64,000 bases of DNA from Schlesneria paludicola DSM 18645 (GTDB taxonomy: Bacteria; Planctomycetota; Planctomycetia; Planctomycetales; Planctomycetaceae): contig NZ_JH636436.1 in the NCBI RefSeq assembly GCF_000255655.1, positions 654,985-718,984 on the forward strand, in the 5' to 3' direction. The notes below the pieces were generated by a model that saw only the letters and a program-made list of their open reading frames with translations, had not been told where the DNA came from and ran no database searches. The position numbers were made by a program, and so were the translations under genes. Positions 31,058 through 39,623 of the stretch are shown piece after piece (position 1 is the stretch's first letter; the number at the start of each line of letters is the position of its first letter).

Positions 31058-31131
31058 GGACGATTAGCTCAGTTGGTTAGAGCGCCACGTTGACATCGTG
31101 GAGGTCGTTGGTTCGAGTCCAATATCGTCCA
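31058..31131 (+). tRNA. tRNA-Val (anticodon GAC)
   Basis: Canonical cloverleaf: GGACGAT/ATCGTCC acceptor, GCTC-AGTTGGTTAG-AGCG D-arm, anticodon loop TTGACAT, T-loop TTCGAGT, discriminator A. Confidence 0.85.
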
Positions 31132-31447
31132 CTTATCACAACTTGATGCTGGCTCGTAATTTACGATTGCCCATCAGGTGAAGAAAGAGGGCCAAAGCGG
31201 GTTGCTACCCTAGTTTTGACCCTGATCGGCCCTGCGGCGTGAAAGTTTGTCGTTCATCGGACCCTGTTGCAGGGTGGCGCATCCGCGAGGAATCTGAAAA
31301 GTCCTCAACCTCTCTCTTCTCCTGCCTGAATTCCGCCAAACAGCAGGCTCGCGTCAAGATTGACGTCAGATCAACTGACAAAACGACGATCCCCGTGGAG
31401 CCGCAGGACTGCCCCACGGGGATTCGTGTTTGAGGAAAATGAAACGT

Positions 31448-32644
31448 TCACAACAGATTGACCACTTTGTCGGCGAGTCCCTTATCACCAAGGATGATAT
31501 TGAGCTTTCCGGCCGAAGCGATCTTTTCCAAGACTTCCAACTCGCGCAATCGCATCAGTGTCGGGCTGTCCGCCAGCAGTTTGGCCGTGTTGGCCTGGCT
31601 GCGGATCGCCGCTGTCTCTTCGCGTCGTGCGATCAAGTTCGCCTCGGCAGCCTTGTGAGCTTCCGTGACCTTGTTCATCAGATCCTTCATATCACCCGGC
31701 AGGATCACATCCCGGATACCGACCGAGGCGATCTCCAGTCCCAGTTCACCCGCTCGACGTCGGATGTTGTCCTGGATCTCCTTCGCGACAGCATCCTTGT
31801 CCGTCAGGAAAGCATCGAGTTCGCGCGCTCCCACCACGCCTCGCAGCACGAGCTGCGTGTCGCGGTACAGAGCCTGTCGCACATCGTCGGTCTGGCTGAC
31901 GGCCTTGCGAGCATCAACCACCTTGTAGGTCACGACAGCGTTCAGTCGCAAAGTGACTTTGTCGGCCGTCATGATCTCCTGACCACCAACGTCGACGATG
32001 GTTTCCCGCAGGTCAACTTCAACCAGCTTGGCTTCGGCCGTACCTTTCCAGAACGCGTACTCACCCGGAGCAAGCGAGTCGACATAGCGACCGTCGATGA
32101 AAAGCACGCCCACGTGATCACGCTGGACCGAGCCAACATCCAGGACACGGTTGGCCAGCGCCGAGCGGACAATCACCTTGAACTGTTCGTGCTCAAAGCG
32201 GACCGGTTGAATATCGATGATCTCGACGCGGACTTGCTTCTGGCCCGTCCAGCAGGCGTGCTGACCTGCTGGCAAGACTTGACTGAACCGGTTCTCGATC
32301 CAGACCAATGCTCGCTCGTTGTCCTTCAGGTCCAGGACCACGGCGCGCTCGGCGAGCGCACCAGACTTGATCATCAAGTCCAACTTCTCGTGAACGAGCC
32401 ACGGCTCACGCTGCGACACGACGTCGACACGGACTTTGCCGAATGGATCAAAGAACCAGTGAGCACCAGCCGTGAGCAGGCCTTGAAACTCACCGTCGCG
32501 GAACAACAAGCCCATTTCGTAGGTACGAATCTTGAAACGCTTCAACAGAATCACGGCAGACCTCCTTTCTGGAGGATCAATCAACGGAAGGCATTCTTGG
32601 CCTCGGGAATTCAATCGCTTTGACGATTTAGACGACAAAGACAC
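31448..32644 (-). CDS. SPFH/band-7 (slipin-like) domain protein
   Basis: RFKIRTYEMGLLFRDGEF start typical of slipin-like proteins; coiled-coil C-terminus. Confidence 0.8.
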   Translation of the reverse strand: MSLSSKSSKRLNSRGQECLPLIDPPERRSAVILLKRFKIRTYEMGLLFRDGEFQGLLTAGAHWFFDPFGKVRVDVVSQREPWLVHEKLDLMIKSGALAERAVVLDLKDNERALVWIENRFSQVLPAGQHACWTGQKQVRVEIIDIQPVRFEHEQFKVIVRSALANRVLDVGSVQRDHVGVLFIDGRYVDSLAPGEYAFWKGTAEAKLVEVDLRETIVDVGGQEIMTADKVTLRLNAVVTYKVVDARKAVSQTDDVRQALYRDTQLVLRGVVGARELDAFLTDKDAVAKEIQDNIRRRAGELGLEIASVGIRDVILPGDMKDLMNKVTEAHKAAEANLIARREETAAIRSQANTAKLLADSPTLMRLRELEVLEKIASAGKLNIILGDKGLADKVVNLL

Positions 32645-32958: not shown

Positions 32959-33030
32959 CGTGCTGTACGGGAGTCGAACCCGTGACTGCCAGATTCTCAG
33001 TCTGGTGCTCTACCTCTGAGCTAACGTCAC
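32959..33030 (-). tRNA. tRNA-like gene, anticodon GAG (leucine-type anticodon) but class-I length; acceptor stem with two internal mismatches (possible pseudogene)
   Basis: Good D-arm (GCTC-AGAGGTA-GAGC), anticodon arm (CCAGA-CTGAGAA-TCTGG) and T-arm (ACGGG-TTCGACT-CCCGT). Acceptor GTGACGT vs ACAGCAC has A·G and C·A mismatches. 5-nt variable region. Confidence 0.35.
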
Positions 33031-33134
33031 CAATGACTTCCGGTCAGAACCCATGTTCGGAACAGTCGGAGCAAAACTCTTTCGAGTGCCCCGACCGCCG
33101 CTGGACGGATGACATCAATGCTTTCAATCCAAAG

Positions 33135-33206
33135 AGACACCGGTGGGAGTCGAACCCACTGGATGCGGCTTTGCAGGCCGCCGCCACGCCGTGTGACATC
33201 AGCGTC
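33135..33206 (-). tRNA. tRNA-Cys (GCA)
   Basis: Anticodon arm GCGGC-CTGCAAA-GCCGC; T-loop TTCGACT; acceptor pairs with G·U wobbles; U73 discriminator as in tRNA-Cys. Confidence 0.55.
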
Positions 33207-33216
33207 ATTCAGTCAG

Positions 33217-33287
33217 TGTCCCTGCCAGGAGTTGAACCTGGTCTACGACCTTCGCAGGGTCGCGTGCATCCACCACACTCCAAGGAC
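33217..33287 (-). tRNA. tRNA-Arg (GCG)
   Basis: Acceptor GTCCTTG/CAGGGAC; D-stem GTGT/GCAC; anticodon loop CTGCGAA; T-loop TTCAACT; discriminator A. Confidence 0.6.
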
Positions 33288-33360
33288 AAAATATTGGTTC
33301 TCTCACTCAACGCGAGAACGACCTTCGATGACAAAACATTTGTGATCGCGCACTAAAAAA

Positions 33361-33431
33361 TACCCCACCGAGGAATCGAACCTCGCCCGACTGCTTCGAA
33401 GGCAGCCATGCATCCTTCACACTCGCAGGGC
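33361..33431 (-). tRNA. tRNA-Arg (TCG)
   Basis: Anticodon loop CTTCGAA; T-arm CGAGG-TTCGATT-CCTCG; acceptor pairs with three G·U wobbles. Confidence 0.5.
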
Positions 33432-33441
33432 ATATTTTCAT

Positions 33442-33513
33442 TCTCCCGACCTGGACTCGAACCAGGGCCTGGACCTTCGGAGAGTCCAATGCATTCCGCT
33501 ACAACATCGGGAC
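33442..33513 (-). tRNA. tRNA-Arg (CCG), G1·G72 mismatch
   Basis: Anticodon arm GGACT-CTCCGAA-GGTCC; T-arm CCTGG-TTCGAGT-CCAGG; first acceptor pair unpaired. Confidence 0.45.
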
Positions 33514-33599
33514 AAACAGGGCCGACGACTGGATTCGCACCAGCATGATTCCGCTTACAAGGCGGACGCCTTTCTCGATCGAGCCACGTCGGCAGTCAG

Positions 33600-33670
33600 C
33601 ACGAGCGCGAGGATTCGAACCCCATCCAGCAGTTTTGGAGGCTGCCCGCTCTCCCAGGAGCATCACTCGT
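33600..33670 (-). tRNA. tRNA-Trp (CCA)
   Basis: Anticodon loop CTCCAAA (as in E. coli tRNA-Trp); acceptor ACGAGTG/CGCTCGT; T-loop TTCGAAT; discriminator G. Confidence 0.5.
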
Positions 33671-33754
33671 GTGTTGCGTCCGCAAGGCGGGCACGAAAAA
33701 CATCGCGCGAACGATGAACCCATTCGTAACCCGTCTCGCGACGCGCATGAAAAA

Positions 33755-34402
33755 TCATTCATCCAATTCCACGGTCCAGTACGCCTCACTGAGGAACTTG
33801 GACCAGCTTCCGATCCGAACATCGTGCTGAGCATAGAGCGGTTTCCAGGTTGGACGTGTCGGCACCTTCTGCAACGGCATGTGTGCTTCAGCGGGTGTAC
33901 GATCGGCTTTGCGCAGGTTGCATTCCAGACACGCCAAAACACAGTTCTCCCAGACGCTGGTCCCACCTCGAGATCGAGGCAACACGTGATCGATCGTTAG
34001 GTCTTCTGTTCTGAGACACTCATGGCGCGGGCTGCGTTCGGCCTGTGAATCCCGATTGTCCACGCCGATGAAGCGGCTATGCCGCCCACAGTACTGACAG
34101 GTGTATCGATCTCGTTTGTAGATGTTTCGGCGACTGAATGTGACCGTGTTTGTGGGAACCCGGTCATATTCGGTCAGGGTGATCACCTCCGGCACGCGAA
34201 TCCGAGACGTCACCGACTGGACGAACAGTTCATCGTCCTGTGGGATTCGCTTCGCCCAATCAGCCCAGGTGTGCTGCTGAAAGTCAGCCGGATCGACGAT
34301 TCGTGCCCGTTCCGCAGCCACCAGCGTCAATGAACGTGCCACCGAGGCCACACCCACCGGCTGCCAGTTCCGGTTCAGTACCAGAGTCTGTCGACTCAAC
34401 AT
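33755..34402 (-). CDS. HNH endonuclease (McrA-like)
   Basis: HNH motif (YTCQYCG...IDHVLPRSRGGTSVWENCVLACLECNLRK). Start set at the internal Met (MLSRQTLVLN) so it does not overlap tRNA-His. Confidence 0.7.
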   Translation of the reverse strand: MLSRQTLVLNRNWQPVGVASVARSLTLVAAERARIVDPADFQQHTWADWAKRIPQDDELFVQSVTSRIRVPEVITLTEYDRVPTNTVTFSRRNIYKRDRYTCQYCGRHSRFIGVDNRDSQAERSPRHECLRTEDLTIDHVLPRSRGGTSVWENCVLACLECNLRKADRTPAEAHMPLQKVPTRPTWKPLYAQHDVRIGSWSKFLSEAYWTVELDE

Positions 34403-34434
34403 CGCCACCACGATTTTCTCTTTCTTATGAAAAG

Positions 34435-34509
34435 GGTGTTCGAACGGGATTGAACCGTCACCTTCGGCTTCACAGGCCGACATGCAGAAACCACTACACC
34501 ACGAACACC
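34435..34509 (-). tRNA. tRNA-His (GTG) with encoded G-1
   Basis: Anticodon arm TCGGC-CTGTGAA-GCCGA; acceptor GTGTTCG/CGAACAC; an extra 5' G (G-1) opposite the C73 discriminator, the hallmark of tRNA-His. Confidence 0.7.
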
Positions 34510-34510
34510 G

Positions 34511-34616
34511 CGCCTTCGCGCGAGAAAGTAGACAGTAGAGAGTTGAAAGTAGAACTGGTTCGCGACGCGTCTTGTCTACTCTCTACTTTCAATCAACTAC
34601 TTTCTCGCGCAGCGTG
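34511..34616. repeat. Palindromic spacer repeat family A, copy 1 (begins 2 nt upstream of the tRNA-His 5' end)
   Basis: cgccttcgcgcgagaaagtag...ctactttctcgcgcagcg with ~14-bp outer inverted repeats; related copies at 36741-36838 and 38998-39110. Confidence 0.55.
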
Positions 34617-34706
34617 CGGAAGGAGCGGGAGTTGAACCCGCAAGGCACATTAAAAATGCTCGACCGGCTTCCAACCGGTTCCCGTCACCATTCGGGTTGC
34701 CCTTCC
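34617..34706 (-). tRNA. tRNA-Ser (GGA), class II
   Basis: Anticodon arm ACCGG-TTGGAAG-CCGGT; long variable arm; T-arm GCGGG-TTCAACT-CCCGC; discriminator G. Confidence 0.55.
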
Positions 34707-34719
34707 GTTTTGACTTCAA

Positions 34720-34791
34720 TACCTCGACCAGGAATCGAACCCAGAACTCCCCGTTAGAAGCGGAGCATGATTTCTATTTCACCATCGAGGC
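34720..34791 (-). tRNA. tRNA-Arg (TCT)
   Basis: Acceptor GCCTCGA/TCGAGGT; anticodon arm CTCCG-CTTCTAA-CGGGG; T-loop TTCGATT; discriminator A. Confidence 0.6.
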
Positions 34792-34801
34792 CAAAAACAA
34801 G

Positions 34802-34889
34802 CGGAAGGCAAGGGATTCGAACCCTCATCTCCCGTGAGGGAGAGTCGCGTTAGCAGTGCGGTCCGGCCAACCGTATCCGGCTACCTTCC
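34802..34889 (-). tRNA. tRNA-Ser (GCT), class II, weak anticodon stem
   Basis: Anticodon loop CTGCTAA; variable arm CTCCC-TCAC-GGGAG; T-arm GAGGG-TTCGAAT-CCCTT; discriminator G; anticodon stem has terminal mismatches. Confidence 0.5.
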
Positions 34890-34927
34890 AATATCGAAAA
34901 GTTGAAATGCGTTTGCGCGGCATGGTC

Positions 34928-35416
34928 TCATCGCCGTTTCACGCCAGGATCGGCGAAATGTTCAATTCTTGTATGCCGTCCCGTTTCAATGTCCGCGAAG
35001 ACGTAATTCTCCGACGCGACCGGTGACCCAGCCATCCTCCGGAAAATGCCGATCTGCCCCAAGTGCAGCATCGCGTCCGCAAACGGACCTTGCAGCAGGT
35101 CCTCTTCATTGACATCGCGAATTGAAGACTCGTTGAGAAGTGACGCGTCAAGCTTTGCTAGGATCTCGAAGTAACCAAACACTTCGGCATTCCATGCCAA
35201 CATAGGCGGCTCAGTGGATTCATAGGGAACCATGAACGAATGCGCGTAGATGAGCACACCTCTCATGTGATTGAGAATCTCGCGTGGGCTTCGAACAGAT
35301 TCTGAGGGCCGGAAGTCTGCGATTTCCGGTGGCATATTCCTGAGCACATTGGCTCCGCGATATGCCAGCGCCGACAGAAAGTGCCGCAGCATGTATCTCT
35401 TCGTCGTTGTTTCCAT
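34928..35416 (-). CDS. DinB/YfiT-like four-helix-bundle protein (hypothetical)
   Basis: Start has GGAGAT 5 nt upstream (METTTKRYMLRHF...). DinB_2-like size and His spacing. Weak assignment. Confidence 0.45.
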   Translation of the reverse strand: METTTKRYMLRHFLSALAYRGANVLRNMPPEIADFRPSESVRSPREILNHMRGVLIYAHSFMVPYESTEPPMLAWNAEVFGYFEILAKLDASLLNESSIRDVNEEDLLQGPFADAMLHLGQIGIFRRMAGSPVASENYVFADIETGRHTRIEHFADPGVKRR

Positions 35417-35589
35417 CGTTATCTCCAATTGTTCCCAACGATTCGCCAAAGCGGCCTGTGAACATACTGAGTCGATTGATCCCCAATAGCGTTGAACCAT
35501 CAGTTCCAGCATGTCAGGTTGATGTCGTACTGATTGATCATGACGTCATGATCAATCGAATAACGAAATCTGAGACCTCAATCCAGAAG

Positions 35590-36254
35590 TTATTCCCAGT
35601 ATTGCTCCCACTTGTCGCCGTAAGATTCCTTGAGGCGTTCTAGGTAGACATAAGTCTTGATCTTGCCCATTTGCAAATCGCGGCCGCTTCGTCCTGATTT
35701 GCAAATGACACCCTCGGTGACACCGTATTTCCCGCAACGAACATCTTCGGCGAATGCCCCGGTGAACTTGCCACGGTGAACTTGCCACGGTACACGATTC
35801 GTGCAATCGGAAGATGTCCGAACCGTTCTACGAATTCGAAAGGCCCGAGTAGGTCTTCGTCACGTGCGACATCAAACATGACCAATCGCTTGACATCATC
35901 AAATTTATGTCGCCCAGCGAATGAATTCGCTCCGAGGTATTCAGCAAATGCAGTGAACCCTTGAACTGTGCTTTCCGAGGCCAATTCACTGAACGTGTGG
36001 GCCAAGGACGCGGACAATGTTTGACGAAAAACTTCCATCGCATCCGATAGCTCAGGGTGATCGTGACGAAACAGTTCCTCGCCGCGATCATCAATATTGA
36101 ACTCATCGCGTCGCGTTCCAAACGCATGCCAGCCGAAGTCCCGATCCCAACGGAAATGCAAATTCGTTCCGTCGTATTTTTCGAAAGCTATGCACTCGGT
36201 GAACGGGAAGTCTTTAGTGTTCGGAATCTTGCGGTAATGTAGCGCGGAGGGCAT
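35590..36254 (-). pseudogene. Rnl2-family ATP-dependent RNA ligase (nucleotidyltransferase domain), apparently frameshifted by a 14-bp tandem duplication at 35761-35788
   Basis: Motif I EKYDGTNLHF (cf. T4 Rnl2 EKIHGTNF), motif III-like AFAEYLG, motif IV LVMFDV and RGKF are in the annotated 204-aa frame (35640-36254). Motif V EGVICKSG appears only in the frame restored by deleting one 14-nt unit, which then runs to TAA at 35590. Confidence 0.5.
35761..35788. repeat. Perfect 14-bp tandem duplication (ggtgaacttgccac x2) inside the RNA-ligase coding region
   Basis: Direct reading of the sequence; the unit length is not a multiple of 3. Confidence 0.9.
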
Positions 36255-36343
36255 GGAGGAATCCTGGCTATCGACCTGATCGCTTTTCCTGTTTGCGTAC
36301 TTGGCCGTCTACTTTCACGGTCGGGTGCCTGCCCTGTCTGCAG

Positions 36344-36428
36344 TGACCAAGGGGAGAGTCGAACTCCCAAGCCCACGAGGGGCACGACGTTCTGAGCGTC
36401 GCGTGTCTACCAGTTGCACCACTTGGCC
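36344..36428 (-). tRNA. tRNA-Leu (CAG), canonical class II
   Basis: 3-bp D-stem with 11-nt loop containing GGTAGA; anticodon arm CGACG-CTCAGAA-CGTCG; 16-nt variable arm (GCCC-CTCGT-GGGC); discriminator A. Confidence 0.7.
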
Positions 36429-36436
36429 ATAATCAG

Positions 36437-36509
36437 TGACCCGTGCGGGATTTGAACCCGCGTTGCCGGCATGAGGGGCCAGCATCCTGAACCGCTAGAA
36501 GAACGGGCC
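36437..36509 (-). tRNA. tRNA-like gene with atypical anticodon loop CCCTCAT (C33; anticodon CTC/Glu-like or CAT-like)
   Basis: Good acceptor (GGCCCGT/ACGGGTC), T-arm GCGGG-TTCAAAT-CCCGC, 6-bp anticodon stem; identity unresolved. Confidence 0.35.
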
Positions 36510-36519
36510 GTTGTTCGAG

Positions 36520-36600
36520 TGCGTCGGGCAGGAGTTGAACCTGCACTGCACGAGGCGGGTGGGTTACAGCCACTTGGGCACGCCAATGCCCAGCCGACGC
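36520..36600 (-). tRNA. tRNA-Tyr (GTA), class II
   Basis: Acceptor GCGTCGG/CCGACGC perfect; D-stem GGGC/GCCC; anticodon loop CTGTAAC; 13-nt variable arm; discriminator A. Confidence 0.65.
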
Positions 36601-36664
36601 ATTCTAATTCGCGCTCACGAATATCTTGCAAACGGGTGTCGTTCGCGCGATGCACGTGAGCGAG

Positions 36665-36739
36665 TAACACGGGTGGGAGTCGAACCCACAGACCACGAAG
36701 GTTTGAGCTTCGCCGCTTTGCCGGATTGCGTACCGTGCC
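36665..36739 (-). tRNA. tRNA with CAA (leucine-type) anticodon, Leu-like D-arm but short variable region (class I length, 75 nt)
   Basis: Anticodon arm CGAAG-CTCAAAC-CTTCG perfect; D-stem CGC/GCG with 11-nt loop; variable region only 6 nt; discriminator A. Confidence 0.5.
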
Positions 36740-36740
36740 G

Positions 36741-36838
36741 CGCCTTCTGCGAGAGAGTAAAAGGTTGAAAGTCGCAAGTAGACAAGAATGGATCCGTCTA
36801 CTCTCAACTCACTACCACCTACTTTCTCGCGCAGCGTA
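36741..36838. repeat. Palindromic spacer repeat family A, copy 2 (fills the spacer between two tRNAs)
   Basis: cgccttctgcgagagagta...ctactttctcgcgcagcgtagc; shares the termini of copy 1. Confidence 0.55.
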
Positions 36839-36839
36839 G

Positions 36840-36913
36840 CGTCCTCGATGGGATTTGAACCCACGTCTCCACCGTGACAGGATGGAGAGCATTCCAGGCT
36901 GCTCCGCGAGGAC
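36840..36913 (-). tRNA. tRNA-Asp (GTC)
   Basis: Acceptor GTCCTCG/CGAGGAC perfect; D-arm GAGC/GCTC; anticodon loop CTGTCAC; discriminator G. Confidence 0.7.
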
Positions 36914-37034
36914 TTTTTCACGCGCGATCAAGATGGGAATGGAAATCAGTGTCGACCGCGCGTTGATAATTAACTCACCTCCCAACGCGCGAGTGACTGG
37001 GTCTGCGCAACCCATCACCGACGCGCACTAAACG

Positions 37035-37108
37035 TAGCTCAGGTGGGAGTCGAACCCACAGCATCCCTGGTTCTAAGCCAAGGTGGTCTGCCGATTGCCT
37101 ACCGAGCC
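37035..37108 (-). tRNA. tRNA with TAG (leucine-type) anticodon and short variable region; weak D-stem
   Basis: Anticodon arm CTTGG-CTTAGAA-CCAGG; T-arm GTGGG-TTCGACT-CCCAC; 6-nt variable region; discriminator A. Confidence 0.45.
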
Positions 37109-37121
37109 ATGTCTTGTTTGA

Positions 37122-37194
37122 TGCCCAGAGCGGGATTTGAACCCGCAAACACTCGATCTTAAGTCGAGTCACTCACACGTTGGCGTACCTGGGC
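37122..37194 (-). tRNA. tRNA with TAA (leucine-type) anticodon and 5-nt variable region (73 nt)
   Basis: Acceptor GCCCAGG/TCTGGGC; 3-bp D-stem plus 10-nt loop; anticodon arm CTCGA-CTTAAGA-TCGAG perfect; T-arm GCGGG-TTCAAAT-CCCGC; discriminator A. Confidence 0.5.
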
Positions 37195-37206
37195 ATGTCA
37201 TCGAAG

Positions 37207-37278
37207 TAATCCCGGATGGACTCGAACCATCGTTACCTGGGTGTAGGCCAGGCGTCGTCGCCGCTGGACCACGGGATC
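37207..37278 (-). tRNA. tRNA-Val (TAC) with C33
   Basis: Anticodon arm CCTGG-CCTACAC-CCAGG (position 33 is C); T-arm GATGG-TTCGAGT-CCATC; discriminator A. Confidence 0.5.
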
Positions 37279-37288
37279 AAATAAAAAA

Positions 37289-37359
37289 TGGACTTATCGG
37301 GAATCGCACCCGAATTTTTGGTTTGCAGGACCGATGTCTTCCTGTTGGACCATGAGCCC
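37289..37359 (-). pseudogene. Degenerate tRNA-like element (non-canonical T-loop TGCGATT, acceptor and anticodon-stem mismatches; loop CCTGCAA)
   Basis: Only partial cloverleaf complementarity. Confidence 0.25.
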
Positions 37360-37379
37360 GATTGTTCGTCGCCAGCGAG

Positions 37380-37465
37380 CGGAAGCCGTGGGGCTCGAAC
37401 CCACAAGCGGGATGTTCCCGCCGCCTGTTTTCAAGACAGGTTCCTCATCCGGCCGGATGACTTCC
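37380..37465 (-). tRNA. tRNA-Ser (TGA), class II
   Basis: Acceptor GGAAGTC/GGCTTCC; anticodon arm CCTGT-CTTGAAA-ACAGG; variable arm GCGGG-AACAT-CCCGC; discriminator G. Confidence 0.6.
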
Positions 37466-37477
37466 GTAATCTGTAAA

Positions 37478-37551
37478 TTGTGGGAGTTGGAATCGAACCA
37501 ACGCCTCCGGGTTCAGAGCCCAGCATCGCCACCAGCAGCGACTATCCCGCA
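37478..37551 (-). tRNA. tRNA-Gln (CTG)
   Basis: U1-A72 first pair as in tRNA-Gln; D-stem GTCG/CGAT; anticodon arm CTGGG-CTCTGAA-CCCGG; one C3·A70 mismatch. Confidence 0.55.
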
Positions 37552-37627
37552 ATGAATTTGATTGAGACAAGACACTCGTACTTTCCAAGGGTTCGTGTGC
37601 TACCGTGGTTCTCGGTAAACTGATGGA

Positions 37628-38101
37628 ATGGATGTGAACTGTGCCAAGCAGATGTTCTTTGCCTACGACGGGTCGCGTTTCTACATGTCGCGAAACGGAG
37701 ATGAGGACAAATACGCTCAGATGCAGGTCCCAGCATCGATCGAAGCACAATGGTTGGATGAGTTGACATCTCGCAAACTCGATCAACTCATTTCTTCGGC
37801 AAATTGGATGGTTGTACATTTTCTCCTTCATCATTCCGACTTCCGCCAATTGGACCGACTCGCCGCAGCTGCGCCATTGGGAACTCTTCAGGAGAAATGT
37901 GCATTTCTTGAGGAACTCCTAAAATATGTACAGCAATGTTGTGGAGCATATGAGTCCAGTCGTCTCGCTAACGTTTGCGATTCAATTCTTCGAGATGCAT
38001 TCACGTTGCGAAAGCGGGCTCGGGCGAAGAATTCCCTTGCTCGAATTGAACGCCTCGTCGAGAACGCCGAAAAGTTTGTCGCGACGTTGCTCTCAGATTG
38101 A
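37628..38101 (+). CDS. Hypothetical protein (157 aa) in a lower-GC segment inside the tRNA array
   Basis: Intact ORF on the opposite strand to the array with no overlap with tRNAs; no recognisable motif. Confidence 0.4.
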   Translation: MDVNCAKQMFFAYDGSRFYMSRNGDEDKYAQMQVPASIEAQWLDELTSRKLDQLISSANWMVVHFLLHHSDFRQLDRLAAAAPLGTLQEKCAFLEELLKYVQQCCGAYESSRLANVCDSILRDAFTLRKRARAKNSLARIERLVENAEKFVATLLSD

Positions 38102-38104
38102 TGA

Positions 38105-38178
38105 ATTGCGGGGGCAGGAATCGAACCTGCGCCTCCGGGGTCAAAGCCCAGCATCGCTGCCAACAGCGACTACCCCGC
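38105..38178 (-). tRNA. tRNA-Gln (TTG)
   Basis: Acceptor TGCGGGG/CCCCGCA perfect with U1-A72; anticodon arm CTGGG-CTTTGAC-CCCGG; T-arm GCAGG-TTCGATT-CCTGC. Confidence 0.7.
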
Positions 38179-38185
38179 AATGGAA

Positions 38186-38257
38186 GAGGGACGGGTGGGA
38201 CTCGAACCCACGCGCTGGTGCTTAACAAACACCTGCTCTGCCGCTGAGCTACCGACC
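38186..38257 (-). tRNA. tRNA-Asn (GTT), T4·T69 acceptor mismatch
   Basis: D-arm GCTC-AGCGGCA-GAGC; anticodon arm GGTGT-TTGTTAA-GCACC; T-arm GTGGG-TTCGAGT-CCCAC. Confidence 0.55.
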
Positions 38258-38264
38258 CAATCGA

Positions 38265-38336
38265 GAGTGCCCTGCGGGAATCGAACCCGCCTGTCCAACT
38301 TGGAAGGCTGGCACCTCTGCCGATCGGTCAAGGGCA
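38265..38336 (-). tRNA. tRNA-Gly (TCC)
   Basis: Acceptor GTGCCCT/AGGGCAC perfect; anticodon arm CCAGC-CTTCCAA-GTTGG; U73 discriminator. Confidence 0.65.
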
Positions 38337-38359
38337 CATATTCTTTCCTCAAGTCGGAA

Positions 38360-38491
38360 GCCGTGGGACTCGAACCCACAATCCCGATTCTCGGGACACC
38401 TGCTTTCGAGCGTTGTACATCTATCGCGGCTTCAGCCTTCATCCTCGCTTTCGCTCGGCCGCAGGCCTTGCTTCCAGCCGGATGACTTCCA
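38360..38491 (-). tRNA. tRNA-Ser(CGA)-like gene with a ~50-nt insertion between anticodon-stem position 31 and the loop (intron-like or disrupted)
   Basis: Ends match tRNA-Ser(TGA) at 37380-37465 (GGAAGTCATCC... / ...GTGGGTTCGAGTCCCACGGCTTCCG). Stem CCTGC/GCAGG encloses the 50-nt insert followed by a canonical loop CTCGAAA. Variable arm TCCCG-AGAAT-CGGGA intact. Confidence 0.3.
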
Positions 38492-38634
38492 TTCGTGTTA
38501 AGGCTGCGGCGACAGGAATCGAACCATCAACCGAAGCCGCTGGCCGAATAGGTCAGTTGAAGGCGAAGGGCGATAGTCTTTCAAATCCGAGTCGCCTGCC
38601 CGTACCAACACGGACTCCACCGCAATTTATATCA

Positions 38635-38708
38635 GTCAGCGCGGTCGGATTTGAACCGACGATCTCGTGGTCCCAAGCCACGCGGATTTCCATGCTTTCC
38701 CACACGCT
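38635..38708 (-). tRNA. tRNA-Pro (TGG)
   Basis: C1-G72 first pair and A73, typical of tRNA-Pro; anticodon arm CGTGG-CTTGGGA-CCACG; T-arm GTCGG-TTCAAAT-CCGAC. Confidence 0.7.
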
Positions 38709-38768
38709 GACAATCGTTCATCGCGGATCGACCTTCGTTGTCATCAAGGATCGTCCACGCGAACAAAA

Positions 38769-38839
38769 AAGCACCCAGCGGGAGTTGAACCCGCACCTCC
38801 GCCTTGGCGAGACGGTACGCTGCCGCTACGTCATGGGTG
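38769..38839 (-). tRNA. tRNA-Gly (GCC) with C33
   Basis: Acceptor GCACCCA/TGGGTGC perfect; D-stem ACGT/GCGT; anticodon loop TCGCCAA; U73. Confidence 0.5.
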
Positions 38840-38923
38840 CATGCATTCCTGGCCGAATTGTTAAAGACCTATTCGCAACGCGCGATTGGCCAAGTTTGTG
38901 AACTCGCTTCATCGCGCATGAAA

Positions 38924-38995
38924 AAGCACCGGGTGGGACTCGAACCCACGTTGCCGTATTACGGGTGCGGTGTCTTGGCCGCTAAACGACCAGTG
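38924..38995 (-). tRNA. tRNA-Thr (CGT) with C33
   Basis: Acceptor GCACTGG/CCGGTGC; D-stem GTTT/AGAC; anticodon arm CCGCA-CCCGTAA-TACGG (one mismatch); T-arm GTGGG-TTCGAGT-CCCAC. Confidence 0.45.
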
Positions 38996-38997
38996 CA

Positions 38998-39110
38998 GCG
39001 CCTTCGGCGAGAAAGTAGAGAGTGGAAAGTCGTGAGTGGACAAGAACCGATCCGTCTACTTTCCACTCTCTACGGACTATTCTCTCTGTCCCGGCACGCC
39101 GGGACAGAGA
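38998..39110. repeat. Palindromic spacer repeat family A, copy 3, plus a 13-bp hairpin (ctctctgtcccgg/ccgggacagagag) that overlaps the 3' end of tRNA-Lys(CTT)
   Basis: cgccttcggcgagaaagtagagagtggaaagt...actttccactctctac has a perfect 16-bp inverted repeat. It starts 3 nt upstream of the 5' end of the preceding tRNA. Confidence 0.55.
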
Positions 39111-39179
39111 GACCAGACGGACTTGAACCGTCACTTGCTCGGGTAAGAACCGAGTGTGCTGCCACTAACACCTTGATCC
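39107..39179 (-). tRNA. tRNA-Lys (CTT)
   Basis: D-stem GTGT/GCAC; anticodon arm CTCGG-TTCTTAC-CCGAG perfect; T-arm GACGG-TTCAAGT-CCGTC; acceptor with two G·U wobbles. Confidence 0.6.
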
Positions 39180-39196
39180 CGTAATCCTTCGTTCAG

Positions 39197-39268
39197 TTAG
39201 GCCTGGGCGGAGTTGAACCGTCGTCTGGCCCTTATAAGGAGCCTGCTCTCATCGTTGAGCTACAGGCC
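39197..39268 (-). tRNA. tRNA-Ile (TAT)
   Basis: Canonical D-arm GCTC-AACGATGA-GAGC; anticodon arm GGCTC-CTTATAA-GGGCC; A73. Confidence 0.55.
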
Positions 39269-39277
39269 CAGTAATCA

Positions 39278-39349
39278 ATGGGGCCGGAGGGATTCGAACC
39301 CCCACCGGGCAGATTAAAAGTCTGCTGTGCTGCAGTTACACCACGACCC
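39278..39349 (-). tRNA. tRNA-Lys (TTT)
   Basis: Acceptor GGGGTCG/CGGCCCC; anticodon arm GCAGA-CTTTTAA-TCTGC perfect; T-loop TTCGAAT; A73. Confidence 0.65.
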
Positions 39350-39410
39350 CGGATGAGGACGTGGTTCCATTTGTTCGTGAGGTCTCGATCCATAATCTGC
39401 ACCTTGTTCA

Positions 39411-39481
39411 ATCGCTTGGAGTGGAGTTGAACCACCGCTGTCGCCGTATCAGAACGACGTGCTTCCGTTACACCACCAAGC
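39411..39481 (-). tRNA. tRNA-Ile (GAT)
   Basis: Acceptor CGCTTGG/CCAAGCG perfect; anticodon loop CTGATAC; T-arm GGTGG-TTCAACT-CCACT; A73. Confidence 0.6.
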
Positions 39482-39623
39482 GGAGTCGGGATGGTCAGAA
39501 TCGAACTGACTGTGTTCAACTACCGCGGCCCGGCCTTCATCCTCGCTATTCGCTCGGCGTCATTCCTTACTTCTCAGCTACCAGCCCGGAAATGACAGAA
39601 CTTTGACTTCGTCAAAACGAAGA

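Follow-up and report, generated by a model that had tools for sequence, protein, structure and literature searches.

Here, we examine a long tRNA gene array (L-array, or tRNA array unit) of the planctomycete Schlesneria paludicola DSM 18645, contained in a stretch of 64,000 nucleotides (nt) of contig NZ_JH636436.1 (positions 654,985 to 718,984; 'the window' denotes this whole stretch, and all coordinates are counted from its first nucleotide). Three genes of the array combine the leucine anticodons CAA, UAG and UAA with a short variable region instead of the long arm of class II tRNA-Leu. We combined tRNA gene calling, covariation analysis of relatives and a scan of species genomes, and found that the same tRNA design recurs in the arrays of many other planctomycetes and in large phages. 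We consider it likely that the three genes are type I tRNA-Leu isoacceptors belonging to a supernumerary, horizontally acquired L-array.

Short-arm leucine tRNA genes in the array

tRNA genes in the window were called with ARAGORN and the Rfam model RF00005. Both agree on four minus-strand genes that a first-pass annotation, made from the sequence alone, had flagged as having leucine-type anticodons (CAA, UAG, UAA and GAG) but short variable regions; RF00005 scores for these four and the CAG gene span 41–63 bits (E values of 5 × 10−6 to 3 × 10−12). ARAGORN reports 31 tRNA genes in the window, 30 of them in the array, which further Rfam hits and remnants complete (Table 1). With 32–33 genes packed into 6.5 kb of the minus strand, this is an L-array by the definition we applied, that is, at least 20 co-oriented tRNA genes at a density of at least two per kb. 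None of the array genes encodes CCA.

Most of the structural description in the first-pass annotation held. Its coordinates match those called here, and both programs place 5–6 nt in the variable regions of the CAA, UAG, UAA and GAG genes. As described, the anticodon and T stems are fully paired (5/5) in all four, with 7-nt anticodon loops that contain U33 (CUCAAAC in the CAA gene, CUUAGAA in the UAG gene and CUUAAGA in the UAA gene), and the calls show A73 in the first three and G73 in the GAG gene. Neither ARAGORN, Rfam nor ViennaRNA folds of the short-arm genes revealed the concealed long arm that the annotation, too, had been unable to find. The CAG gene is the canonical class II tRNA-Leu it had been taken for: it alone has a class II arm (longer than 10 nt and with a stem), which the three short-arm leucine genes lack, and CAG is the sole leucine isoacceptor that usually retains the long arm in these arrays. 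The proposed leucine-like D arm fared less evenly, as it is present in the CAA and UAA genes (3-bp stem, 10–11-nt loop), is irregular in the UAG gene, where only two Watson–Crick pairs form, and is absent from the GAG gene (stem of 4 bp, loop of 7 nt).

All three short-arm leucine genes share U8, A14 and A73, and their variable regions close with U at position 48. The CAA gene has U8-A9, a CGC/GCG D stem and an 11-nt D loop with G18G19, and its acceptor stem includes the pairs G1.U72 and G2.U71. The two D-stem pairs of the UAG gene lie in a conserved GGC...ACC motif; an added 26:44-type C-G pair lengthens its anticodon stem, and position 37 is occupied by A, not by the G37 of class II CUN decoders. 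For the UAA gene, ARAGORN calls one pair more than Rfam, and the Rfam boundaries, which we adopted, yield A73; its D loop (CAACGUGUGA) is devoid of the G18G19 that the orthologue in a Thalassoglobus array (locus L003) retains, and the tRNA may be weakened or impaired by this loss.

Table 1 Features of the S. paludicola array and its surroundings, in window coordinates
Feature	Position	Strand	Remarks
Long tRNA gene array	32959–39482	minus	30 ARAGORN genes, Rfam hits at 33361–33431 and 37289–37359, and remnants
Likely type I tRNA-Leu(CAA)	36665–36739	minus	75 nt; variable region 6 nt; ARAGORN and RF00005
Likely type I tRNA-Leu(UAG)	37035–37108	minus	74 nt; 'TAGGCAAT..AGACCAC / GATGCU' subfamily
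Likely type I tRNA-Leu(UAA)	37122–37194	minus	73 nt; A73, G37; no G18G19
Class II tRNA-Leu(CAG)	36344–36428	minus	85 nt; arm of 15–16 nt; G9, A73, A37
'GAG' tRNA-like element	32959–33030	minus	72 nt; short variable region; G73
Remnant of true short-arm Leu(GAG)	36240–36306	minus	5′ half; covariance model 20.5 bits, E value 1.4 × 10−4
tRNA-Arg(UCU)	34720–34791	minus	no G18G19
tRNA-Ile(UAU)	39196–39270	minus	no G18G19
tRNA-Lys(UUU)	39279–39350	minus	no G18G19
Two tRNA remnants with large insertions	38338–38634	minus	
HNH homing-type endonuclease gene	33755–34483	minus	PF01844, E value 3.7 × 10−13; phrog_16726, E value 1.7 × 10−34
RNA-ligase family open reading frame (ORF)	35640–36254	minus	within the array
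Hairpin elements of ~100 nt	34509–34616; 36740–36838; 38997–39106	minus	between tRNA genes
SPFH/Band-7 gene	31448–32644	minus	PF01145, E value 1.9 × 10−27; follows the terminal tRNA-like element
Canonical tRNA-Val(GAC), stand-alone	31058–31132	plus	71.2 bits, top tRNA score in the window; 3′ end toward the island

Minimum free energy (MFE) folding was uninformative about these genes, with unremarkable z-scores and no cloverleaf from the UAG and GAG sequences alone, and we therefore relied on covariation among relatives.

Conservation of the short-arm family

Homologues, which the first-pass annotation had suggested looking for in public and phage genomes, occur in phages, viral contigs and planctomycete genomes. 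By blastn against phages, the CAA gene resembles the 75-nt tRNA-Leu(caa) of Gordonia phages and the UAG gene the 74-nt tRNA-Leu of Microbacterium phages; in both cases the relatives come from phage tRNA arrays with several short-arm leucine genes. The CAA gene shares 86% identity with its Thalassoglobus orthologue and 75–79% with tRNA-Leu(caa) of Gordonia phage Boopy and with its counterpart on a viral contig of 94 kb (L010). The UAG gene is 91% identical to Leu(tag) of the Thalassoglobus array, 87% to Leu(tag) of L010 and 78–81% to tRNA-Leu of Microbacterium phages; it also shares 89% identity with Leu(taa) of a 226-kb IMG/VR contig (L007), a case of near-identical bodies with different leucine anticodons. 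The Thalassoglobus array is syntenic with that of the window and comprises short-arm leucine genes with UAA, UAG, CAA and GAG anticodons alongside a long-arm CAG gene. Pattern scans of IMG/VR added further relatives, among them L007, which has all five leucine anticodons in short-arm form.

The short-arm cloverleaf is a genuine structure that evolution has maintained. In an alignment of 44 distinct short-arm leucine tRNAs from the window, Thalassoglobus, two GenBank phages and roughly 25 IMG/VR contigs (alignment A1), 95.5% of cells are paired on a cloverleaf with a short variable region, and two-sided changes are found in 20/21 pairs. The covariation score is 0.83, compared to 0.20 for shuffles, of which 0/500 reach the observed value, and to at most 0.16 for slid partners. 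T8, A14 and A73 are invariant across the alignment, long arms are absent from it, and at 3:70 all 44 members pair as C-G, U-A or G-C, never as G3:U70.

Among the three long-arm isotypes, only leucine loses its arm in these arrays. This emerges from a census of 2,112 tRNAs at 120 genome loci, sorted by variable-region length; the loci were picked by a pattern that requires one short-arm Leu-type gene, which biases absolute frequencies, while the remaining genes at each locus are unselected. Of 333 leucine tRNAs, 269 are short and 64 long, with short forms prevailing for CAA (86 short, 4 long), GAG (61 and 2), UAA (50 and 0) and UAG (46 and 2) and long forms for CAG (26 and 56), whereas the serine (1 and 146) and tyrosine (2 and 46) genes keep their arm. 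The 269 short-arm genes are uniform in other respects: 263 have A73, 267 U8, 260 A9, 268 a terminal U48 and 249 a fully paired acceptor stem (7/7). As 61/64 of the long-arm leucine tRNAs have G9 where the short-arm ones have A9, the tRNA core changes in concert with loss of the arm.

The short-arm body, moreover, almost never occurs with anticodons other than the five for leucine. With the anticodon masked in both profile and targets, 228/232 genome tRNAs that score at least 40 bits carry leucine anticodons, and the four exceptions are visibly derivatives of leucine genes. Within the window, a covariance model of the short-arm family (R1) scores the CAA gene, a training member, at 80.4 bits and the UAA gene at 71.5 bits, with the long-arm CAG gene as top non-member at 53.1 bits, and the UAA gene reaches 39.9 bits on the anticodon-blind hidden Markov model (HMM). 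The D arm alone was rejected as a leucine marker, as the 'TACGC..AAGCG' pattern also occurs in phage tRNAs with GUU, UAU and serine anticodons; a blastn search of the CAA gene against Escherichia coli genomes matched no tRNA of any isotype and hence gave no isotype evidence.

A few tRNAs from other loci deserve separate mention. In Thalassoglobus neptunius (L126), a 76-nt 'Phe(aaa)' gene is an orthologue of short-arm Leu(CAA) with the anticodon AAA on a leucine-typical body (54.6 bits on the anticodon-blind HMM); if leucyl-tRNA synthetase (LeuRS) charges it, leucine would enter at phenylalanine codons. At five loci (L099, L100, L124, L059 and L067), a conserved insert of ~20 nt (CUCGGGCACCG...GGUCGC) interrupts the anticodon loop of Leu(UAG/UAA)-type bodies, which ARAGORN reads as tRNAs of 93–97 nt with odd anticodons; the insert could be a mini-intron, or could mark an inactivated or regulated form. 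Long-arm tRNAs of 88–94 nt with the asparagine anticodon GUU and G73 are found on viral contigs L009, L014, L017, L022, L031, L035, L037, L039, L043 and L045, and also at L010 1640–1729 and in L048. The whole group has the TACGC..AAGCG D arm, and such a long-arm 'Asn' tRNA, in itself unusual, could have a serine-identity body.

The GAG gene had been grouped with the other three in the first-pass annotation, which its positional orthologues contradict: it is a separate, terminal tRNA-like element. Its acceptor strands form 5/7 pairs with two adjacent mismatches, its MFE fold is not a cloverleaf, and it ranks 13th in the window on R1 (39.3 bits versus 71–80 for members), with 15.1 bits on the anticodon-blind HMM, equal to background. 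A profile search recovered 13 members of this element; on the array strand, each follows tRNA-Cys or tRNA-Arg(GCG) at a distance of 100–180 nt (orthologues include L003 11648–11719, L084 4442–4511, L101 6207–6278, L158 4237–4308, L054 245–312 and L055 5264–5335). The array invariably ends with it, and wherever the fetched locus extends that far, the next gene is the SPFH gene, which is thereby linked to the array end in at least eight loci. Conservation extends to the D arm, the anticodon stem, the T arm and a 3′ ACCAAC. In the place of the anticodon, the 13 elements have 11 different triplets (AAU and AUG twice each, GUG, GUU, GUA, UUG, CGU, GAG, AUC, AGG and UCG), position 33 is not always U, and the acceptor strands of those checked by hand form 3–5/7 pairs. 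With an anticodon loop this variable and an acceptor this poor, the element is free of the constraints that bind a decoder.

For the LeuRS of E. coli, G73 acts as an antideterminant (PMC9976931), and the element in the window is probably not aminoacylated. It might serve in 3′-end processing or stability, as an att-like site or as a decoy. We also considered a mutated tRNA-His, tRNA-Thr or tRNA-Phe and rejected it, as the blast neighbours are of mixed isotypes and the positional orthologues offer a better fit. The true short-arm Leu(GAG) has its slot in the array order between Leu(CAG)/Met and Val(GAC), and its remnant lies at the predicted place. This remnant aligns to L003 9907–9985 and to Leu(gag) of L010 (alignment A3); its loop now reads UCGAUAG through mutation, and the 3′ half has given way to the beginning of the RNA-ligase ORF.

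The array, its neighbourhood and its spread

Two protein-coding genes lie between the tRNA genes. Homologues of the HNH ORF are embedded within the array in 36 fetched loci, and homologues of the RNA-ligase ORF, all of which are planctomycete, lie within an array only in L003 and L120 besides the window. The RNA-ligase ORF covers just 76–79% of its homologues of ~214 amino acids, and its product has no exact match on record; it is likely to have suffered a frameshift or truncation. Near 35760–35790, close to where the similarity ends, there is a tandem duplication (GAACTTGCCACGGT twice). The protein annotation of the window places no aminoacyl-tRNA synthetase in the array, and a scan for sigma-70-like promoters found none on the array strand.

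Beyond the SPFH gene lies the stand-alone tRNA-Val(GAC), probably a housekeeping gene. At another locus (L088), the canonical tRNA beyond the SPFH gene is Asn-GUU, and its 3′ end likewise points toward the island. tRNA genes facing the island in this manner fit past integration at tRNA genes; no att-like repeat of the tRNA-Val(GAC) 3′ end was found in the window, and no integrase in its flanks. These flanks are ordinary chromosome, encoding a NiFe hydrogenase, HypF, hydrogenase maturation proteins, a HisF-like protein, a peroxiredoxin and GFO/IDH/MocA oxidoreductases, and the flanking genes differ between array-bearing genomes. The HypF product shows 100% identity to its S. paludicola counterpart.

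Within the array, the position of tRNA-Ile(UAU) is conserved across related arrays. An element of ~100 nt is present three times between tRNA genes, and its copies fold as long, near-perfect hairpins (−45 to −51 kcal/mol, z-scores of −4.6 to −5.7), which may serve in processing or termination, or represent a small mobile repeat.

The array is widespread. The viral contig L010 has the gene order of the window array, adjoining a phage-family topoisomerase-like gene and serine recombinases. A family-pattern scan of 185,579 species genomes returned at least 120 matches, and the counts that follow refer to the matches listed. Roughly 110 of the 120 are Planctomycetota (more than 100 species genomes), from all major orders, and include cultivated members of Stieleria, Rubripirellula, Rhodopirellula, Singulisphaera and Thalassoglobus. 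In most of them the order of genes is conserved, an 8-kb slice holding as many as 43 tRNA genes, and the closest of the listed arrays are ~80% identical to that of the window. A blastn search of the array against plasmids gave a single irrelevant match. S. paludicola has 77 tRNA genes compared to 54 in a related strain (PMC10923784), numbers that would fit a full housekeeping set plus the array. Taken as it stands, the array appears to be supernumerary and horizontally acquired, and of a type shared with large phages.

Probable leucine identity, competing explanations and known systems

Bacterial LeuRS, seryl-tRNA synthetase and alanyl-tRNA synthetase do not read the anticodon. As the family lacks both G3:U70 and a long arm, LeuRS would remain as the charging enzyme of these three, and the retention of the arm in serine and tyrosine tRNAs, as opposed to its loss in leucine tRNAs, matches which synthetases need it. 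The host LeuRS would thus charge the three tRNAs with leucine, using A73, U8:A14, the 15:48 pair and the D/T-loop corner and neither the anticodon nor a long arm. Once charged, they would decode UUG (CAA gene), CUA/CUG (UAG gene) and UUA/UUG (UAA gene) as leucine and, upon expression of the array, could act as back-up or alternative isodecoders. In E. coli, leucine identity resides in A73, A15-U48 and G18G19 rather than in the anticodon or the long arm, and an arm-less minimal tRNA-Leu is still charged (PMC9976931). The LeuRS of Streptomyces coelicolor leucylates a natural type I tRNA-Leu(CAA), a substrate on which the enzyme is sensitive to U8:A14 and to how many nucleotides the variable loop has, but not to G18G19 (PMC6614811).

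Several observations weigh against the three genes being working leucine isoacceptors. The selection of census loci described above is one. Another is that A37 is found in most CUN-decoding leucine tRNAs of the arrays (in the window and in L047–L166), long-arm CAG included (62/64), at a position where canonical bacterial CUN decoders usually have G37, the m1G37 site. The D stem of the UAG subfamily is irregular, and the UAA gene is devoid of the G18G19 that matter for E. coli LeuRS. Both E. coli LeuRS and one Streptomyces LeuRS are reported to fail on the Streptomyces type I tRNA-Leu (PMC6614811), which makes charging dependent on the host. The window copy of the array also shows decay. Relative to the consensus order, its Phe-Glu-Pro start and the Met-Leu(GAG)-Val-Thr-Ala block are missing; two tRNAs persist as remnants with large insertions, one of them Ser(CGA)-like with ~60 nt inserted past the D arm and the other Gln-like; and four tRNAs (Arg-UCU, Leu-UAA, Ile-UAU and Lys-UUU) have lost the G18G19 that their orthologues in L003 or L010 keep, which suggests relaxed constraint. 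The truncation of Leu(GAG) and that of the ligase ORF are further signs of the same process.

Such decay lends some credit to the idea that the short-arm genes are relics, their arms deleted in unused pseudogenes of a 'degenerate tRNA gene cluster'. Planctomycete clusters have been called degenerate, with low Cove scores (PMC4807772), and L-arrays are poorly transcribed where studied (PMC8421152). We nevertheless regard this as unlikely. The short-arm build is kept in 269/333 leucine genes over 120 loci and in phages, mostly with complete acceptor stems (249/269) and A73 (263/269); compensatory changes affect 20/21 pairs, the anticodons remain in the leucine box, and the loss of the arm is accompanied by the G9-to-A9 shift and spares serine and tyrosine. 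The window copy is partly eroded, while the family as a whole is under selection.

Somewhat less probable is that decoding is not the main role of these tRNAs and that, as decoys or replacements, they counter tRNA-targeting toxins or anticodon nucleases, the short arm helping them to evade factors that recognize class II tRNAs. tRNA arrays are widely seen as putative anti-defence elements (PMC12803027; PMC11555353), and the in-array HNH gene (36 loci) and RNA-ligase ORF (window, L003 and L120 only), the full short-arm leucine sets of phages, with all five anticodons on L007, and the A37 in place of G37 in CUN decoders would suit that role. This analysis, however, identified no nuclease or toxin that targets class II tRNA-Leu specifically, and replacements must still be charged and decode, which makes this idea overlap with that of type I isoacceptors rather than exclude it. 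The first-pass annotation had also offered decoys as an option, a fair description of the GAG gene but not of the CAA, UAG and UAA genes.

Its recoding option, in which another amino acid would be inserted at CUN/UUR codons, fared worst. We aligned the HypF gene of the window to 119 homologues, a weak test that covers one protein. Sites with CTA (0.92), CTC (0.80), CTG (0.66) and TTG (0.87) are mostly leucine in the homologues, the rarer codons TTA and CTT fall at variable sites, and leucine codons account for 4/41 of the conserved-column mismatches, close to their 10% codon share. HypF thus gave no sign of codon reassignment across these homologues, and a CUU-to-Pro recoding, considered on account of two conserved proline columns, was rejected because the closest relatives have leucine or histidine there. 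That the tRNAs carry an amino acid other than leucine is very improbable: atypical bodies, charging by LeuRS that is here deduced, and rare derivatives in which this body bears a non-leucine anticodon (AAA in T. neptunius, for example) are outweighed by the absence of G3:U70 (alanine identity) and of a long arm (serine identity) from the 44 members, by the need of most other synthetases for their own anticodon bases (PMC9976931), by an array without a synthetase gene and by leucine-codon sites in HypF that behave as leucine.

The option of a novel short-arm leucine isoacceptor family, the remaining one in the first-pass annotation, thus stands for the CAA, UAG and UAA genes on the strength of covariation and the leucine-tied body; it does not stand for the GAG gene, nor as a novelty, given that relatives are already annotated. 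Beyond the type I isoacceptor reading itself, and as a doubtful extension of it, loss of the arm might be an adaptive design of the tRNA sets of mobile elements and phages rather than a neutral trim. Short-arm tRNAs with A9 and A37 would then be chargeable by LeuRS yet invisible to host factors that recognize class II tRNA-Leu, for example G37-dependent modification or tRNA-targeting toxins and defence nucleases. The array could in that case sustain leucine decoding while host tRNA-Leu is under attack, and the terminal element, with its freely varying anticodon loop, could be a companion decoy or a processing element.

The kind of tRNA and array described here is already known, from Streptomyces type I tRNA-Leu, from L-arrays and planctomycete clusters, and from annotated phage tRNA-Leu genes; to our knowledge, the sole biochemical exception on record to a long-armed bacterial tRNA-Leu is one Streptomyces isoacceptor. 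A 2023 review of tRNA identity has tRNA-Leu long-armed everywhere save in animal mitochondria (PMC9976931). Like the window genes, the type I tRNA-Leu(CAA) of S. coelicolor (Fan et al., NAR 2019, PMC6614811) has a leucine anticodon, a short (5-nt) variable loop and U8:A14, and it occurs alongside class II tRNA-Leu in a cell with one LeuRS. Whereas it is a single chromosomal housekeeping CAA isoacceptor, the window has three isoacceptors (related arrays have 4–5), in an apparently mobile, supernumerary array and in another phylum; and whereas leucylation is demonstrated for Streptomyces, for the window genes we infer it. The variable loop reads ACAGC in S. coelicolor and CCAGU, AAAGU or ACAGU in the family, and beyond this the likeness to S. 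coelicolor is one of description. Single-copy tRNA-Leu(CAA) genes of actinomycetes (L130 from Actinopolymorpha alba, L098 and L145) have the same D-arm pattern as the window genes, but those fetched encode a complete or partial CCA, unlike the array genes.

At the level of the array, the L-arrays or tRNA array units already described (PMC8421152) resemble the window in having more than 20 dense, co-oriented, apparently supernumerary tRNA genes, a homing-type endonuclease and an association with RNA ligase, as well as a patchy distribution, phage relatives and planctomycetes among the carrier phyla. L-arrays spread by horizontal transfer, and in Anabaena translational stress induces the array, with which an RNA ligase is co-regulated (PMC8421152). 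The L-array papers do not report short-arm leucine tRNAs, and the planctomycete array has its own conserved order, terminal tRNA-like element and linked SPFH gene. 'Degenerate tRNA gene clusters' with tRNA-Ile(UAU), UAU being the only anticodon exclusive to planctomycete clusters, were reported in Planctomycetes by Kim et al. (PLoS One 2016, PMC4807772), with S. paludicola DSM 18645 among the genomes, and are almost certainly the same element as the window array. Whereas that study treats the atypical tRNAs as degraded and makes no mention of variable arms, the covariation found here argues for a maintained design.

Among phages, Gordonia phages Boopy, Forza and Sixama and Microbacterium phages Big4 and A3Wally carry tRNA-Leu genes of 74–78 nt with CAA, UAA, UAG, CAG and GAG anticodons. 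These share D-arm motifs, A73 and U48 with the window genes at 75–81% identity, but are phage-borne, have Actinobacteria as hosts and are annotated by anticodon only, without comment. Animal mitochondrial tRNA-Leu and arm-less E. coli tRNA-Leu minihelices (PMC9976931) are likewise leucylated without a long arm, through A73, A14 and the tRNA corner; the former have a dedicated LeuRS, the latter are artificial, and neither is homologous to the family beyond general tRNA ancestry. In the literature, we found no explicit description of short-arm leucine sets in arrays or phages, nor of their breadth and conservation in Planctomycetota.

For genome annotation, the short-arm genes should be labelled tRNA-Leu rather than pseudogenes, and the terminal 'tRNA' should not be counted as a decoder. 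For the biology of these bacteria, our results mean that selection maintains entire sets of short-arm leucine tRNAs in an apparently mobile array of more than 100 planctomycete species and in large phages. This raises the questions of which bacterial LeuRS accept type I tRNA-Leu, why leucine alone drops its arm and what the arrays do, all of which can be tested in cultivated S. paludicola, Stieleria magnilauensis and Rubripirellula obstinata.

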